DNA from: Lytechinus pictus
Lineage: Eukaryota
Length of the DNA: 64,000 nt
Direction of reading: 5' to 3'
Assembly: GCF_037042905.1 (NCBI RefSeq)
Contig: NC_087251.1
Span: 11,596,001 to 11,660,000, forward strand
The notes below the pieces were generated by a model, which was not told the origin of the DNA, did not search any database, and saw nothing but the letters and a program-made list of their open reading frames with translations. Below, piece by piece: positions 28,496 to 45,563 of this stretch. The stretch's first letter is position 1; each line of letters begins with the position of its first letter. The position numbers and the translations under genes were made by a program.

Positions 28496-29493
28496 TTGTA
28501 ATAAAAAACGTTTTTTTATAAAAAATAAAAAAAACGTTTTTTATTGTTTTAAAATGTTTAAAATCGTTTTATTACATTTTTTTCCAACAAATAATGCAAC
28601 TTTTCGTAAATCAATTAAACTATACGGTACAGTCTGATTTAAGCTCTTGATGTTTTAAACATATTATTGGAGTAAGTAAGAGAAGACTACAATGTTTGTT
28701 ACTGAATTTCCAACAGAAAAATTCATTTTTCCCAAAAAAAATTACTAAATCATGGAAATTGAATGCCACCCCCCCCCCCACTAAAGTTGACATTTCATAA
28801 GTTAATTCCTCATACATGTGTATATACATGTAGTCCCGGTGTATTTTTAGTCTTGTCAATCTGGGGGGGGGGGGGCGAGAAGAATTTGCACAATGGAAGA
28901 AAATGACATACCGGCACTGTATAATCTATGGAGTTCAAAGCTTAATTGATTTGAATCAATTATGCCAATTTTAGTTCTTTAGTTAATATAAATATTAAGC
29001 CCTTGAACTGCTTTTTTCAATTGAGGAATTTACATGTAGATCAAATGCATAAAAGATAAAAAATCAGTATAAAAAGTTTTTTTCATTTTTTTTTTAAATG
29101 GAAATTATTGGCAATAATTTCAATTAACAAAAAGTACAATAATGATACAGATTTTGACAAGAATTTACAATTGACTTTATACATGAATCATGTTTTTAGC
29201 AATTTGGGGTCTGACATGCACTTGTTGTGTAATATCATAACCGCATACCCATGCATGCATCCTAAAATAGTCTTGAATGATATGGCGTACGTGGCCCTGT
29301 CACGTTATAGATTTATCATATAAATTTTTGAGGGGGCCATTGAGGTCCCCTGGGATTGTTAGGTGTAAGGTTTGCTAGCTGATTATCTTATACTGTTTAA
29401 AGTACTTTTCTTCATCTTTACAAAGCGCAAAGTGTCACCTGCTTTCGTGTGTACTTCAAGAGTAAGATGAAATGGAAGTGTTGCACAAGCATA

Positions 29494-29848
29494 GGAGGAG
29501 CCGTGTTGTAGTGGTTCTGACTCTCGCCTTGTAAACAGAGGGTCGTGTGTTCGAATCCCACCGCGGTCTGGCGTCCTTTGGCAAGGCGTTAATCCACACT
29601 TTGCCACTCTCGACCCAGGTGCTAAATGGGTACCCGGTAAGATGTGAAAGTCATTGTAGCTTCTCCAGTTCTGTGTGCGCCTCATCGGCGACTGACTGGA
29701 ATACTCCCCAGGGAGTGGAGGATGTGCATACATTGTGTGCGGGAATGACTGATTTAATCCAATGACCGGGGTAATAATATATCTCTAAAGCGCTTAGACA
29801 CGTCGTTTCGATGTATTAAGCGGTATATATAAGCAGATTATTATTATT
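29494..29848 (+). mobile_element. tRNA-derived SINE with L2-like 3' tail
   Basis: A box (TGTTGTAGTGG), B box (GTTCGAATCCC), tail AAAGCGCTTAG...TATATAAG-(ATT)n; 7-bp TSD AAGCATA (29487-29493 and 29849-29855). Confidence 0.85.
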
Positions 29849-30049
29849 AAGCATAATAATGTTTTACAAACCGCCGCCTTCCCGCATATTAGCGCGGACT
29901 GCGCGTCGCCCTCCCGCTCAAAGGTCGTTAGCGCAAACTGCACGTCGCCTTCCCGCAGAAAGGCTGTTGGCATGCAGTTAAGAGTGCGCAAACGGCCTTT
30001 GTGCGGGCAGGCGATGCGCAATCCGCGCTGACGGCCCTTATGCGGGAAG

Positions 30050-33034
30050 AGGGCCAGAACGTGTTGAAAGTGCGTCAAAAGTATATTCGGTGTTACATTT
30101 TTACGTTAACATGTTGATTATGGATAATTTTGGGCGTAGAATCGACTGAACATAATTTAAAGCCGATATGACGTCACTTTGATACCAAATCTTGATTAGC
30201 TACTTAAAACCTATCTGTGAAAAGACAAATTACTCTAAACAATGTGCAGTATATAAACTTTGTGTTATGTGTTTCTTTAAGATTGACCAGAGTGAATGTT
30301 GGTTTATGCTTCTCACATGCCTAAAAAGTGTGTATGAGATCCTGAAAATAATTTTATGGCATCAAAATGATCATTAGATTTAAAAAAAATACTTAAAAAT
30401 CTGAAAAATATTAACCGTGCTTTATCAAGTGGCGTAGACTTGGGTAAAACGCAAAGTATAACACCACGAATGTTTTACTATGAGGAGGGTTTTTTGCTGA
30501 AATTATTCTACAAGTAACTTTTATATCTGGAAGAGGGGCGGGTAGCCCTAATATTAGTGCTGCAAGTCAGGCGGCATGTTCGGGTTCGGTTCGGTTCGGC
30601 ACGGTTCGGTAATTTTTTTCCGAACTTTGGTTCGGTTCGGGGTTCGGCAATAAATGCCAAATTAAATTTAACATATAAAAAAATAAAGTTCGCCGACCCA
30701 CGAACACATAAATTCCCGAACGATCTTTCATATATTTATAATAAATTTTGTTTCTAAAAAGAATAGTTATGAAATTGTTGCATAACTTTCTTTTGTTTTA
30801 ATCTTTAAACAAAAAATATGAGTCATTTCTACTTTCATTTTTAAAATGAAAAAAAAAAATCAAAAGAAAAAAATATTGATAACGAGAGAATCAGGACATT
30901 AACAGAATTACAAAGAAAATAATTTTTTTTTTTCATGATTATTTCATGTAGCTAAGACCATGATCGATTACAATGTCATTGCCAACGCAGCTTCTCAAAT
31001 TGGAAAGTGTTGATCGGGAATGTCGAAACAGTAGACAAACAACCTCAACTCAACTGTTATTATACTGGTAAAATTCACATTCCAAAGAATATGAAATGTT
31101 TTAGAAAGTCCCTATTTTCTGAAAAGTGGTTAAATCTGGTCAATCAATTACTTTAAAAAGATAAAATATCAGTCCATTCTTGGTCCAGAAAGATCGACGC
31201 TACGCGACTTCAAACATATTTCCAACACGAAAATGAGTACATGGGACTGTACTGTGTATTTTAGTGTTGTGAAATCACTCGGCGATGATCGTCAGAACCA
31301 AGACGGAACTGATAATTTATTATTTCATTTTCAGTAATTGACCAAATTAAACCACTTTTTTAGAAAATATTGACAACGGAAAAACATTTGAAGTTCGGAA
31401 TACGAATTTTACCTGTATAATAGCAACTGAGAGCAGGTTGTTTGGACTTCCTGTTTCAACTTTCCTTACCAACCATTCGATTTCCGGAACATCGATCAGG
31501 GAACATGCGTTGATTTGGTTTGAATTTTTATCTTTTCTGTTTTTTTTTCAACCTCATTCCTTCATCTCTTATTTATTTATCTTTTATATTAATATGGAAA
31601 TTTCAGAAGGTGGAATATATTTACTTTACCATTACTTTGTCAGTCACAAGGAATTAATTTATGTCTTGTATTTTTCTTTTTTAAATACAAAACAATTAAA
31701 TGTACGTCGGATTAGAGCAATACGTAATTCAACTACACTTTTTAACTGAGTTAAGCTTAAAATGTCCCCACGTTTTATGAAGAAAAAAATAAATTCATGT
31801 TTATAAAAAAAATTGAAAATGATACAAACTTAATCAAACACGAGACCGAAGCTGTCATACTTTGTCATTTACAAGGAATGAATTTATGTCTGGTTCTTTT
31901 TCTTTATTAAATACAAAATGATTAGGTCCGATTACGATCACGATCGATTACGGCAATACGTAATTAAACCACACTTTTATACCAAGTTTAGCTTCAAAAT
32001 GTCCCCTCATTTTATCAAGAAAAAATATATTCATGTTAATAAAATATTCTTAAGTTGATAACAGTTCAATCAAAGACGAGATGGGAGCTATCAAAATAGA
32101 TTTAAAAAATATATAGAGTGGAATTCTTTTTGTGCACAATCACTAACCAATATTTTTTTATTTTATTTTATACTTAAATATATGTAGTCAGTGCATTATT
32201 GCATTGCAAATATTATTATTATTTTTTTTTTCCCGAACTACCGAACCAGGCCTTTGTGTTCGGTTCGGTTCGGTCCGGTTCGGAAGTGCCAAGTTCGGTG
32301 AACTTCCGTTCGGTTCGGCAGTTCGGCTACAGCACTACCTAATATGCATTATCAACCTTTATTTTGTTTGCATTATGCCCGGAATTCATGTCATTTGGAA
32401 TGGAAGGGGAATCGTACTCGCCATGCAAAAATAAACGGCAATGTACACCCTACACGGTGCGCTGCGATGACTGCGCTGTATAAAAAGACCGTTTTTTAAC
32501 AGGTTTTGGGGGTGTTCAGTCAAGTAAAATCGGCTCTAACATGAAAACGGGCAGCTAAATTTGGTATTGACTTAAAGCTTTAATAGACATATAGCAAAAT
32601 GATGATGATAGATTTAAACGGAAATCCAAACGTTTCTAATGTTAATGCAAAAAACATGTATTATCAGCCTATTTCAAGGAATAATTATCCCATAAACGTC
32701 CTGAAATGTGTCTTATATCTAATTTGAACCCTTTCACACGAAAAAAGAATATATCAGGATTATGTGGGTGCCATTTCAGATTCCTACATGAAAAAACCTC
32801 TTGTGAAATGGCTTGTTTTTCAATTAAGTTGTCATATATGTGGCATTTCGCAAAATGTCACATTTTACGATTTGAGGGAGGAAATTAACAACCTTTATGC
32901 AAATTCCCGAATGAAATATTTTGCTGAAGTATTCTTCAAAGTGTTGTCTTTCAGCTGGGCATGACAAAAATTAAAAATCTATAATTGCCCAAAATGACTT
33001 TTGGCGCAATTTTGTTTCGCCCCGGCCCACTGTG
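30050..33034. mobile_element. Non-autonomous Transib-like DNA transposon with RSS-like bipartite TIRs (left heptamer lost)
   Basis: Right end read inward: CACAGTG-GGCCGGGGCGAAACAAAATTGCG-CCAAAAGT. Left end: (A)G-GGCCAGAACGTGTTGAAAGTGCG-TCAAAAGT. The two align without gaps. The element interrupts the host palindrome gggaag|gcggcggtttg. Confidence 0.7.
30555..32337. mobile_element. Non-autonomous hAT-like element nested in the Transib-like element
   Basis: TIR TAGTGCTG(C/T)A; perfect 8-bp TSD CCTAATAT (30547-30554 and 32338-32345); subterminal TTCGG/CCGAA repeats at both ends. Confidence 0.85.
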
Positions 33035-34875
33035 CGGCGGTTTGTAAAACATTATTATGCTTGTGCAACACATCCATTTCATTCAAGAACTGCAATGTAT
33101 TTGAGCTTATTTTAAATGGTGTTTCTTTCCCTGTCCAAAAAGTGAGCACAACAGATATTTTGTTGAAATAAGAATATTCTTAATATGGATTGATGTACAA
33201 AATTGAACTGGGAAGAAAGGAACATGACAAAGAGAAAGGGAGAATGAAGGGGGAAAGAGAAAGAAAAGAAAAAGAGTGGTGTTGAGAAAGAGTTTTAATT
33301 AGAAGAAAATAGTACACCACTTCAGAAATAAAAGTATGAAAAAAAAAATTCATCTAAAATCACATCCATGCAAATTTACAACACCCAAGCCTATGTGGTG
33401 TTTTAAAACATGTTTAAAAAAAAAAAACGGGTGTTTTAAAACACACCGTTTAAAACGTGCCAACCCTGTAGGGGGCTATTGTAACTTATTGTTGCAAGCG
33501 ATATTTTTCCGTCTGCAATAATTATTTCTTGCTGCATCCCGCAAGAACATCATGTTTTACAAAAGGAGACATTCCAAAGACATAACGACGGATTGGTAGA
33601 CTTTTCAGCAATTAAAAATTGGTGTTCGAGACGATGAATCTTTTCAGAGAAAATATGTCTCTGAGAATAGCCACATGTATTTTTAGCACAGAAGCGCACA
33701 AGCATAAGCATCGGGGCGCAAGGAAATTACGCCTCATCAACAATGCGCTTCATAATTTTTCAGAAGAGACGCTTCTATTTGTTGACCTAAGCATATAAAA
33801 AGCTTAATGATTGGTGGATGATGAAATATTGGGCGTGTCAGAGATAAAATAGGGGACGTCCTTACAGAGATAAGACAATTTTCAGAATACCAATTTAAGA
33901 GAATTTTAGCGAGCTGTTATCTTGCTGACTTACAAGAAAAGTTAAGACAATTTTCAGAATACCACCCCAAAACTGCTTCGGTCTCTGTTACATGTATGTT
34001 GGTTGTTCCACTGAACTCCGTTAGCTCCACTCACCAAGTCCAAGAAATAATTTAAAAAAATTTAAATGTTTAAAAACTCCTCGAAACAGACGGCTCCAAA
34101 ATCACATGCATCGCGAGAACTTGTTCCAAAGCAATGCGATCATTTTTGTAACAGTTGCAGATTGGTATTTAAATTATGATTTTGGTTGAAATATAAATTG
34201 TTTTTGCTGTTTGACTTTGATTGGTGAGTGTTTAGATCTGTTTAGTTTTTAAGAAGACGCTGGGTCGATCGCCCAGGTTTGATTGATCCCATGATTGCGC
34301 ACTCAAGCGGATAGATTTTCGACAGTGACATGTATATCGTCAATTGCTATCTGTACCAATGGTTGAATGTGGAAAAAGCTCCAGGACATAACAAATATAT
34401 AATTTTACAGCATTATTTTTAAGTGTGAACTTTTTTTTATAAGCACTGTATAGATCTAGGGGGGGGGGGGGGAACCTTCCCAAAATGTTGCTGAAATTTC
34501 ACATTTTACATTTTAATGGTGTCCTACATATATTTCACAATTATGCCTTAGTTGTTTACTTATTTTAATTTTTTATTTTTGGTGTTAGGCTTATTCCTGT
34601 TGTTCTGTATATATACAGTCAGGATAGACATTTTATTAGTTTGGCAAACCAATAAGAAATTGCATGTTTAAGGATGCTCAATGAACACATGCTCCCATGT
34701 ATTCATCAATGTGATTACATGTATATTAAAAGTGGGTGTGAGCTTAAGTTGAAATTTCTTTATCAAACAATCCACCTGAAAGGCACCTTCCATCAGAATT
34801 ACCCATCTCTGACAAAAAGTACCCTTCACATTTTGCATAAAATTGTGTTATGAAGTAAATTTGCTCTTTTTTTAA

Positions 34876-42917: not shown

Positions 42918-45563
42918 ATGCAAACCTTCAAACAACATCTGACTCAGCTCTACGGGGAGCCTACTCAACGCACCGCCAGGCAACTTAAGCGCGACCTAGT
43001 TAAATCAGCTAAGCTTACCAACCACCTCACCTTCCTCAAACGCTGCCGCCACTCCGACATCATCCCGCCAGGAGTACAACTCAAATCTTCCGTTGACACC
43101 CTGAAAGCCAAACGCATCCTGCACTAAGCCAGCTTAGACCTTACTCGTGAACGCACTGCACGCACCCGACACCAACTCCACGATCTCAACTCAAGCATCG
43201 CTTCTACTCAAACCCAACTTAGCCAACGACTCAAGCCAGACGATCTAGACAAAGTTCAGGGATTCAACAACTACACATCTCGCAAAGCCTTCCAGTCCAC
43301 CAAACTGAAGCAAATGAACAAGTTCGACCGACTCCACTCCCGCAAGCCTTCACAAGCCAACCAACAACCTTCGACCGAAGCAACCAAGGACACCGTAATC
43401 AACCTTAGCCGACACCAACTTACCCAAGCCGAACACAAAGTACTCTCCCTTGGACTCAACTTCGCCGTAGCTCCTAAGAAGATCCCTTTCTCGGACATAG
43501 TACAGCAAGTCGAACCCAAGCTCCGCTTTCTCTCCTAAGCGGCAGCCAACGAAATTAGACTCAAAGTGACCAATGCCCTCTCCGACGCAAAGCCACCTAA
43601 ACAAAACCTCTCCAAAGAAGAACACTCTGCCATCCAGGACCTCCGACGTAACCAAGCCATCCACATCCTTCAGGCTGACAAGGGCAACGCCACCGTTGTC
43701 ATGGACCAAGACGTATACGATGACAAGATCGAAGACATTCTCCAAGACAAGGACACCTACTCCAAACTCAACAGAGACCCAACTCCGGCCAATGAAAGGA
43801 AAATCAACCAACAACTGCTGACCCTACACCGATCCGAGGCACTACCCAAGGCACTCTACTTCCAACTCAGATCTTCTTCAGCCAAGTCACCTATCCTATT
43901 CGGACAACCCAAGATACACAAGCCTAACACTCCTCTCCGTCCTATCATCTCCACCCGCAGGTCACCCTGCTACACCACAGCACGCCATCTGGCCAACATC
44001 CTCCAGCCACTCGTAGGCCAAACCCAGCACCATGTCACCAACTCCAAGCACTTCATTGACATCATCTCCAAGACCAAGATCCGGCCCTCCGACACACTCG
44101 TTAGCTTTGATGTCGTCTCCCTCTTCACCAGCGTACCTGTAGACCAAGCATGTGACATCATCAAGCAACGCCTGATCACCGACCCAGACCTCGCATCCAG
44201 AACCAATCTCACACCAGACCAGATCCACGACCTCCTCCTCACCTGTCTCAACTCCAACTCCTTCAAATGGCGCAACAGCTAATACAAACAACTACAAGGA
44301 GCAGCCATGGGCTCACCTCTCTCACCAATCATCGCTAACATCTTCATGGAACATTTCGAGCACCAAGCACTCAAGACTGCGAACAAACCTCCTTCACTCT
44401 GGCTCCGCTACGTCGACGACACCTTTGTCATCTGGCCGCACAGCACACCCGACCTTCACCAGTTTCTCAACCACCTCAACCTCCAGCACCCCAGCATCAA
44501 GTTCACCATGGAGACCCAACGCGACAACTCAATTCCTTTTCTAGACATTCTCATCACCAAGACACCATCTGGATTCCTATCTCACCAGGTGTACCGGAAA
44601 CCCACCCACACAGACCGCTACCTCAATTTCCGCTCACACCACCACCCATCTGTCCACCAATCAGTCGCCAACACTCTCATCAGACGAGCCCACCAACTCA
44701 GCGACAAGGCGCACTTACAACAGGAACTCAAGCACGTGACCAATGCACTCACCACCATCAACCATTACCCCAGGAGAAGGATCAACACTCAACCGTCCAG
44801 CCACCAACCCAGCACCAACAGCACCGAAAACCCATCCGAAACCAAGCCGATCGCCACCATAGTACTTCCCTACATCGGCAAGACTTCACACCGACTACAA
44901 CGCATCCTTCACTCTGCCAACATCCTCGTCAGACACCAATCCTCTCGCAAGCTACACTCCATCCTTCACTCTCACAAGGACAAGCACCCATCCAACAAGC
45001 AACCAGGCGTCTACAGGATCCCCTGCGACTGCGGCAAAGTCTACATTGGAGAAACCGGCCGAGACTTCGACACCAGACTCAAGGAACACAAGACCCACCA
45101 CCGACGCAGCGACTGGGACCGATCTGCCATCGTCAAACACGCACAACAGGAAAATCACCGCATAGACTGGGACAAGAGCCACCTAATCACCAACATCCGG
45201 CACTGGAATACCAGAAGGGTCAGGGAAGCCATTGAGATACATCAACACAACACCGTGTCTCAAGACCCTGGCCTCCACATCAACAGCATCTGGCACCCAA
45301 TTCTACGTCACCACCCAACTTCCAACCAATCCACAACCAACCCGCCGTCCACCGTCACACCACCAAGCCCTCCTACCCAACACAGCAGTCTGATTGCATC
45401 ACCAACTCAACCAGCGACTTCACCGACGCACACACCACCGACACCTCGCTACAACCTCCGCCGAAGACCCAACACCTCATCCGTTCACCAGGCCACCCAC
45501 TCACTCCCTCCGAAGCCTACCCGACGAGTCCGCCGACCAACACGCACAGAACGCCACCACTGA
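42918..45563 (+). pseudogene. PLE polyprotein (reverse transcriptase + GIY-YIG endonuclease); one reading frame interrupted by three TAA stops (43125, 43536, 44280)
   Basis: ORFs starting 42918, 43314, 43566 and 44307 share one frame; motifs ADKGNATVVMD, PKIHK..PLRPIIS, SFDVVSLFT, GAAMGSPLSP, RYVDD, YRKPTHTDRYL, GVYRIPCDCGKVYIGETGR...RLKEH, REAIEI. Confidence 0.95.

Follow-up and report, generated by a model that had tools for sequence, protein, structure and literature searches.

The window analysed here is a stretch of 64,000 nucleotides of the Lytechinus pictus genome (GCF_037042905.1, contig NC_087251.1, positions 11,596,001 to 11,660,000 of the forward strand). Between positions 30050 and 33034 it contains a transposon copy that is interrupted by a younger element and is itself inserted in a host repeat. 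The features are listed below by window position, with the strand where one was assigned; the 5ʹ and 3ʹ sides are named relative to the parent transposase gene.

29849-30049, resuming at 33035-33082 (no strand assigned): host repeat, left part; the repeat is an imperfect palindrome rich in GC, placed by the empty-site alignment of five copies
30050-30080 (plus): damaged 3ʹ terminal repeat, of which positions 6-36 are left and the heptamer is gone, from the ungapped alignment at offset 30045
30075-30083 (plus): 23-position block TCAAAAGTA of the damaged 3ʹ repeat, 5/9 nonamer match
30050-30554 (minus): 3ʹ-side part of the non-autonomous Transib; consensus 4-510 aligns with 30048-30554 at 95.3%
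30547-30554: end of the 3ʹ-side part, where the 8-bp duplication made by the nested element has its first copy
30555-32337 (no strand assigned): nested 1783-bp hAT-like non-autonomous element with ends TAGTGCTG and GTTCG-rich subterminal repeats
32338-33034 (minus): 5ʹ-side part of the non-autonomous Transib; consensus 503-1210, 93.0%
32996-33004 (minus): "23-spaced" block CCAAAAGTC; in all intact related families seen, CCAAAA is equally far from the terminus on either side
32999-33034 (minus): intact 36-bp 5ʹ terminal repeat with an 11-bp outer block, an 11-bp variable spacer and a 14-bp inner block, the skeleton found in TransibN1_SP
33007-33015 (minus): "12-spaced" block ACAAAATTG (family consensus ACAAAAGTG), made of the final 3 bases of the spacer and the initial 6 of the inner block
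33028-33034 (minus): heptamer CACAGTG of the 5ʹ terminal repeat, the exact V(D)J RSS consensus heptamer
33035-33039 (plus): CGGCG, the right-hand copy of the 5-bp target duplication and the only one left; this 5-mer also flanks Transib1_SP

The original prediction had described the right end, read inward, as an RSS-like heptamer with nonamer-like blocks 12 and 23 nt away, and this description was confirmed. The heptamer CACAGTG at 33034-33028 is followed by 12 nt and then by ACAAAATTG at 33015-33007, which matches the RSS nonamer at six of nine positions; after a further 2 nt comes CCAAAAGTC at 33004-32996, exactly 23 nt past the heptamer and again with a score of 6/9. The left end had been described as having lost its heptamer while remaining alignable without gaps. 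Indeed, no heptamer was present at 30050, and the ungapped alignment at offset 30045 gave 27 identities over 45 positions, compared with 8-18 at 24 other offsets. The alignment quoted for the two ends therefore stood, but the CG at positions 16-17 and the G of CAAAAGT, which had been counted among the shared bases, were private substitutions that do not occur in the consensus. At the left end, the nonamer score was 3/9 at the 12 position and 5/9 at the 23 position. A 6/9 nonamer likeness is by itself weak evidence: by chance such a match occurred at 2.0% of the positions in the window, within 12±1 or within 23±1 nt in 5.0%, and at both 12±1 and 23±1 nt in 0.3%. The heptamer cannot be put down to chance in this way, because hundreds of copies have it as their conserved border (the pattern control gave 0).

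The insertion site was reconstructed from other copies of the host repeat (90 first-look candidates, 40 scored). Two of five uninterrupted copies read GGGAAG-GCGGCG-GTTT across the site, two more were one base off and the fifth diverged past GGGAAGGCG, confirming the earlier suggestion that the element splits a GC-rich site of a host palindrome. Judging from these empty sites, the left heptamer and the left target duplication were probably removed by an 11-bp deletion (G + CGGCG + CACAG, between two AG) together with one substitution. The loss of the left heptamer postdates the insertion, because a copy without the left CAC would be unable to insert as is. In the host repeat itself, comparison of 29467-29877 with 33034-33082 revealed that the left arm is the inverted right flank (27 + 29 bp, 96-100% complementary), and this arm is split at 29494-29848 by an insert, labelled SINE-like by eye, with a 7-bp duplication AAGCATA. 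Since five other host copies carry a different left arm, the left arm in the window looks like the product of a local template switch. An Rfam search over 29300-33300 returned nothing but one weak hairpin match far under the cut-off.

The nested element is flanked by the 8-bp duplication CCTAATAT at 30547-30554 and 32338-32345, and it arrived after the Transib. A nested hAT had been predicted here; a hAT-like element was found, with its limits corrected to 30555-32337 and with the 8-bp duplication just given. We take it to be hAT-like on the 8-bp duplication and the TAG ends, which are features of this superfamily. Its own family gave 430 first-look candidates, and among the 40 scored the closest full-length copies were 97% identical. 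Within the nested element, 31009-31473 and 31633-32093 contain an imperfect inverted repeat of 460 bp (67%) as well as a direct duplication of 236 bp (76%).

The right part of the element yielded 472 first-look candidates in the 812-Mb assembly, of which 40 were scored (85-91% identical, excluding the window copy itself) and 30 copies were retrieved. Genome-wide, end-pattern searches allowing at most three mismatches returned 286 ends of the 5ʹ type and 363 of the 3ʹ type (control, 0), and the skeleton shared by the ends occurred 869 times at no more than one mismatch (control, 0), mostly in this family and in a 2-kb sister family (L048, L050). The left end was in view in 21 of the 30 copies; the other nine were the window copy, copies that had lost this end and one copy in which an insertion pushed it out of the locus. 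CAC was present at both ends in 17 of the 21 two-ended copies, the remaining four having damaged right ends, and each heptamer position was conserved in 27-29 of 30 right ends and 20-21 of 21 left ends. The anticipated multi-copy family was thus found, with hundreds of copies and with CACAGTG at both ends of the intact ones.

Among the 17 copies that have CAC on either side, 13 showed a perfect target duplication of 5 bp and all 17 reached at least 4/5 identity, and none of the 17 had a perfect duplication of 3, 4, 6 or 7 bp. A 2-bp match (CG) was seen in nine of them and an 8-bp match in two, within CGC repeats. The right-flank 5-mers of the 30 copies were 85% GC, so the GC-rich 5-bp duplications proposed at the outset were also observed. 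Seven of the 30 copies (L008, L012, L017, L018, L019, L020 and L027) occupy one CGC-rich site within a different repeat and are found there in either orientation; a sister-family copy (L048 and L049 are concerned) sits there as well, and this site is an insertion hot spot. In a further family copy, L007, two different nested inserts were noted at 502-1500, one of them adjoining the site used by the hAT-like element of the window.

The family consensus, built from the 21 two-ended copies, was 1210 bp long, ended in CACAGTG and had no stop-free frame longer than 70 codons, in agreement with the prediction of a non-coding, non-autonomous Transib of about 1.2 kb. The copies diverged from it by 2.7-6.4%, which is a lower estimate because they were chosen for likeness to the window copy. 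In the literature searched we did not find a paper on this particular family; Repbase or Dfam may include such an entry.

Both consensus ends begin with an outer block of 11 bp, which a spacer of equal length separates from the 14-bp inner block at positions 23-36, and they align without gaps. The spacers, which are alike at 3 of 11 positions, are the sole difference between them. The block predicted at a spacing of 23 nt was conserved, since CCAAAA occupies positions 31-36 in both consensus ends, about 23 nt inside the heptamer; the same held for all eight undeleted end types compared. Because this second block is equidistant from the heptamer at both ends, there is no 12/23 asymmetry in length. 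The original prediction of an incipient 12/23-like asymmetry is therefore dismissed as far as length is concerned, with the inner block at 23-36 at both ends, but a mild difference in sequence at positions 20-22 is real. At four intact 5ʹ ends the triplets here are ACA, GCA, ACC and ACC; four 3ʹ ends have TTG, CCC, GTC and CTC, and in the families of this genome the 12 position scored 5-6/9 at 5ʹ ends and 1-4/9 at 3ʹ ends. CAAAA at positions 21-25 was found at 322 ends, and of the first 100 matches listed 99 were of the 5ʹ type when counted by eye. Conservation of the 12-spaced ACAAAA among copies, likewise predicted, was seen in 28 of 30. This conservation is uninformative, because the neighbouring 6-mers were similarly kept (25, 27, 28 and 25 of 30), indicating common descent, not selection.

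The ancestry of the family was examined through transposase genes. The Pfam RAG1 profile found RAG1-like loci and missed the Transib transposases, and the latter were reached via a Transib-like library protein, P0113, whose best structure match was HzTransib. Two further library proteins tried as Transib transposases, P0106 and P0115, were rejected as RAG1L-like. Two classical Transib transposase lineages, A and B, are present in the genome; over the piece compared they share about 63% identity. Lineage A is represented by L059 (G000:C15:7470347-7471831), a 495-codon frame with E values of 3.8e-83 to HzTransib and 5.8e-5 to lancelet RAG1L; its alignment to HzTransib is free of long insertions around the zinc-binding part, and its CxxC motif has Y where the first C should be. 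The lineage B copies (on C11 and C19) are broken, and the L060 piece gave an E value of 3.1e-24 to HzTransib and of only 0.85 to RAG1. The four transposase copies on C11 look like segmental duplicates.

The non-autonomous consensus shares DNA with the flanks of these genes. Consensus positions 1-267 were 76% identical to DNA downstream of a decayed transposase (L062), ending in a heptamer-like end; positions 376-472 matched a region about 1 kb upstream of a lineage B gene at 76-77%; and positions 928-1156 matched DNA just upstream of another decayed transposase (L064) at 73%. Because the consensus matches lineage B flanks, we regard the family as having arisen from a B-like Transib by internal deletion. 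The right end in the window is the 5ʹ end of the family, since the right side of the consensus matches an upstream transposase flank and the left side a downstream one. The direct parent was not among the loci seen, because the related flanks (L060, L062 and L064) are merely 73-80% identical to consensus pieces. The sister family has the same end skeleton and retains the final 55 codons of the lineage A transposase (L059); at the 23 position its 3ʹ end reaches 7/9.

The search for an autonomous partner with the same ends, suggested earlier, showed no intact element with both ends among five loci (L059, L060-63, L062, L064 and L070) drawn from 86 scored of 173 candidates. L059 and L070 had no ends in the DNA examined, L060 and L062 had a 3ʹ end alone, and L064 had a decayed 5ʹ end; a 5ʹ end was not found in the upstream DNA examined of the C11 and C8 transposase copies. 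The transposase loci examined contained no convincing instance of the GRP nonamer-binding motif. Two longer loci, L048 (4.2 kb) and L049 (4.6 kb), were rejected as autonomous elements and are non-autonomous copies with nested retroelements, and a two-copy relative (L051/L052) was rejected as a transposase carrier, being without similarity to the RAG1L queries. As for the retroelements, window positions 43539-45563 and L048 1147-2256 encode a reverse transcriptase with a GIY-YIG-like tail (Penelope-like, labelled by eye), and L049 contains a LINE-like endonuclease/RT frame (also labelled by eye).

Taken together, the element at 30050-33034 is very probably a dead copy of a 1.2-kb non-autonomous family that arose by internal deletion of a classical HzTransib-type Transib and was mobilised in trans by cut and paste. 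Since 6/9 nonamer matches are common by chance (2% of positions), a fortuitous resemblance in another CAC-ended superfamily, such as Chapaev with its duplications of 3-4 bp, or a single-copy accident could have produced a similar first impression; the hundreds of copies, the absence of perfect 3- or 4-bp duplications in all 17 copies, the ends equal to those of a published Transib and the homology to Transib transposase loci reduce this to a negligible chance. It is also very improbable, though not quite to that degree, that the element derives from a RAG1L/RAG2L (RAGL, TransibSU) transposon or serves as a substrate of a host RAG1L. The genome does contain 17 Pfam RAG1 matches, three of them with stop-free frames longer than 600 codons, and a heptamer with a 5-bp duplication is also described for RAGL elements in the available parts of PMC4411706 and PMC7204232. 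However, the element shares no DNA with the 17 RAG1L loci and their 1.5-kb flanks, a tblastn search with 150 RAG1-like proteins against the family gave no match at E 0.01, and the positive DNA homology lies in classical Transib flanks. Furthermore, positions 8-10 are GGC at both consensus ends, as opposed to the A-rich block (AAA, TR2) that the accessible text of PMC7204232 gives for RAGL ends, and in echinoderms a RAGL transposon with intact ends is unreported in the accessible text of PMC10629977, which describes intact-ended Transibs as common. Because homology to transposase flanks is present and homology to the 17 RAG1-like loci is absent, the family descends from Transib and not from a RAG transposon, and the derivation from a RAG transposon that had been offered as one possibility finds no support here. 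Among the RAG1-like genes, L031, L032 and L033 (G000:C182, C233 and C4) have stop-free frames of 612-624 codons, two of the three lie on small contigs with identical scores and frames, and there are 14 further matches. A Pfam search for RAG2 gave no match anywhere, and its controls were equally silent, which makes this negative uninformative.

A different question is whether ends of equal length could be functionally unequal, with usable nonamer-like sites on the 5ʹ end at 12 nt as well as 23 nt and on the 3ʹ end at 23 nt only, and with an enzyme that pairs an end read at 12 with one read at 23. We consider this unlikely. It would fit the 5ʹ ends, which at positions 20-25 read ACAAAA, GCAAAA or ACCAAA (5-6/9), and the 3ʹ ends, which read TTGAAA, CCCAAA, GTCAAA or CTCGGA (1-4/9); the CAAAA mark is found on the 5ʹ ends of two families linked to transposases that share about 63% identity over the piece compared, and the published asymmetric Transibs likewise have their 12-like end on the 5ʹ side (PMC1131882, available part). 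It would also fit L064 (2596-2650), a transposase-bearing decayed copy in which 9-10 bp are missing between the two A runs of the 5ʹ end. On the other hand, the CCAAAA at the 23 position is preserved at both ends, in all eight undeleted end types compared, and also in TransibN1_SP, where one end is identical to the other; at positions 20-22, L051 and L065 as the nearest relatives have ACC (ACCAAA) and not ACA; and L064 is a single case whose heptamer is also damaged. L065 has a full-length end and is a single older copy (75%). A lineage with short 5ʹ ends, suggested by L064, was searched for with intact short ends and rejected: of five matches (control, 1) none was truly short, all being full-length ends with a substitution. 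A latent 12/23 system, in which the 5ʹ end would be read in the 12 register and a deletion of one turn, as in L064, would create a true short/long pair, is doubtful to the same degree, and nothing in the data requires the 5ʹ end to have a second site in latent form.

Returning to the internal-deletion derivative of a classical Transib, the published elements offer close counterparts. According to the available part of PMC1131882 (Fig. S4g), TransibN1_SP of the purple sea urchin is identical to the ends described here at positions 1-11 and 23-36, has CGGCG, CGCCG or CGACG duplications and is non-coding; it measures about 0.9 kb by its listed coordinates, against 1.2 kb here, and carries one 11-bp spacer at both ends, whereas the spacers differ here; the comparison covers the ends. 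The autonomous Transib1_SP (PMC1131882, available part) is flanked by CGGCG, as at 33035-33039. Transib5, Transib2_AG and TransibN1-3_AG (PMC1131882), the subgroup I Transibs (PMC9435367) and PflRAGL-A (PMC10629977), as far as the available portions of these papers describe them, share the heptamer, an A-rich block and 5-bp GC-rich duplications with the present family; their ends differ by about 10 bp in length, while those of the present family are equal. The HzTransib transposase (PDB 6pqn, subgroup II) is the best structure match for both linked transposase lineages, and subgroup II Transibs have no long zinc-region insertion (PMC9435367), as in the lineage aligned here. HzTransib itself is reported to cleave by nick-hairpin and to make 5-bp duplications, with ends of little or no nonamer similarity (PMC4840297, available part); the transposase copies found here are incomplete or broken. 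Compared with the V(D)J RSS, the consensus heptamer is exact and the 5ʹ end has the AA of nonamer positions 5-6 in the 12-spaced as well as the 23-spaced block, but the nonamer match is just 6/9, there is no pair of 12-type and 23-type ends, and there is no antigen-receptor context.

By this route, internal deletion of a classical Transib transposon would have produced the non-coding 1.2-kb family, which a classical Transib transposase presumably moved. Acting in trans, the transposase would bind two ends of equal geometry, cut at the border of the CAC heptamer by a nick-hairpin reaction, by analogy with HzTransib, and insert the element into GC-rich 5-mers such as CGGCG, which would become duplicated. 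The inner 14-bp block (positions 23-36), alike at both ends, is likely a second binding site, as its sequence conservation across two species and both transposase lineages suggests; a region equivalent to the NBD is reported in both Transib subgroups (PMC9435367), yet HzTransib ends have little or no nonamer likeness, which weakens the case for such binding in this subgroup. A nonamer-like match would arise at both 12 and 23 nt because the inner block has two A runs with a spacing of about one helical turn.

The element is an ordinary copy of a sea-urchin-type Transib, a kind known since 2005: RSS-like Transib ends, the sea-urchin end skeleton and 12/23-asymmetric Transibs were all published in that year (PMC1131882, available part). 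What is gained is one family for the repeat library of this genome, with its orientation and parent lineage fixed. The origin of the 12/23 rule is still debated, as the available parts of PMC8355894 and PMC10629977 illustrate from opposing sides. If positions 20-22, in which 5ʹ ends differ from 3ʹ ends, proved to matter functionally, the family would provide a testable intermediate for that origin, and if the latent 12/23 reading were true, it would show how the 12/23 rule could simply have grown out of symmetric ends.
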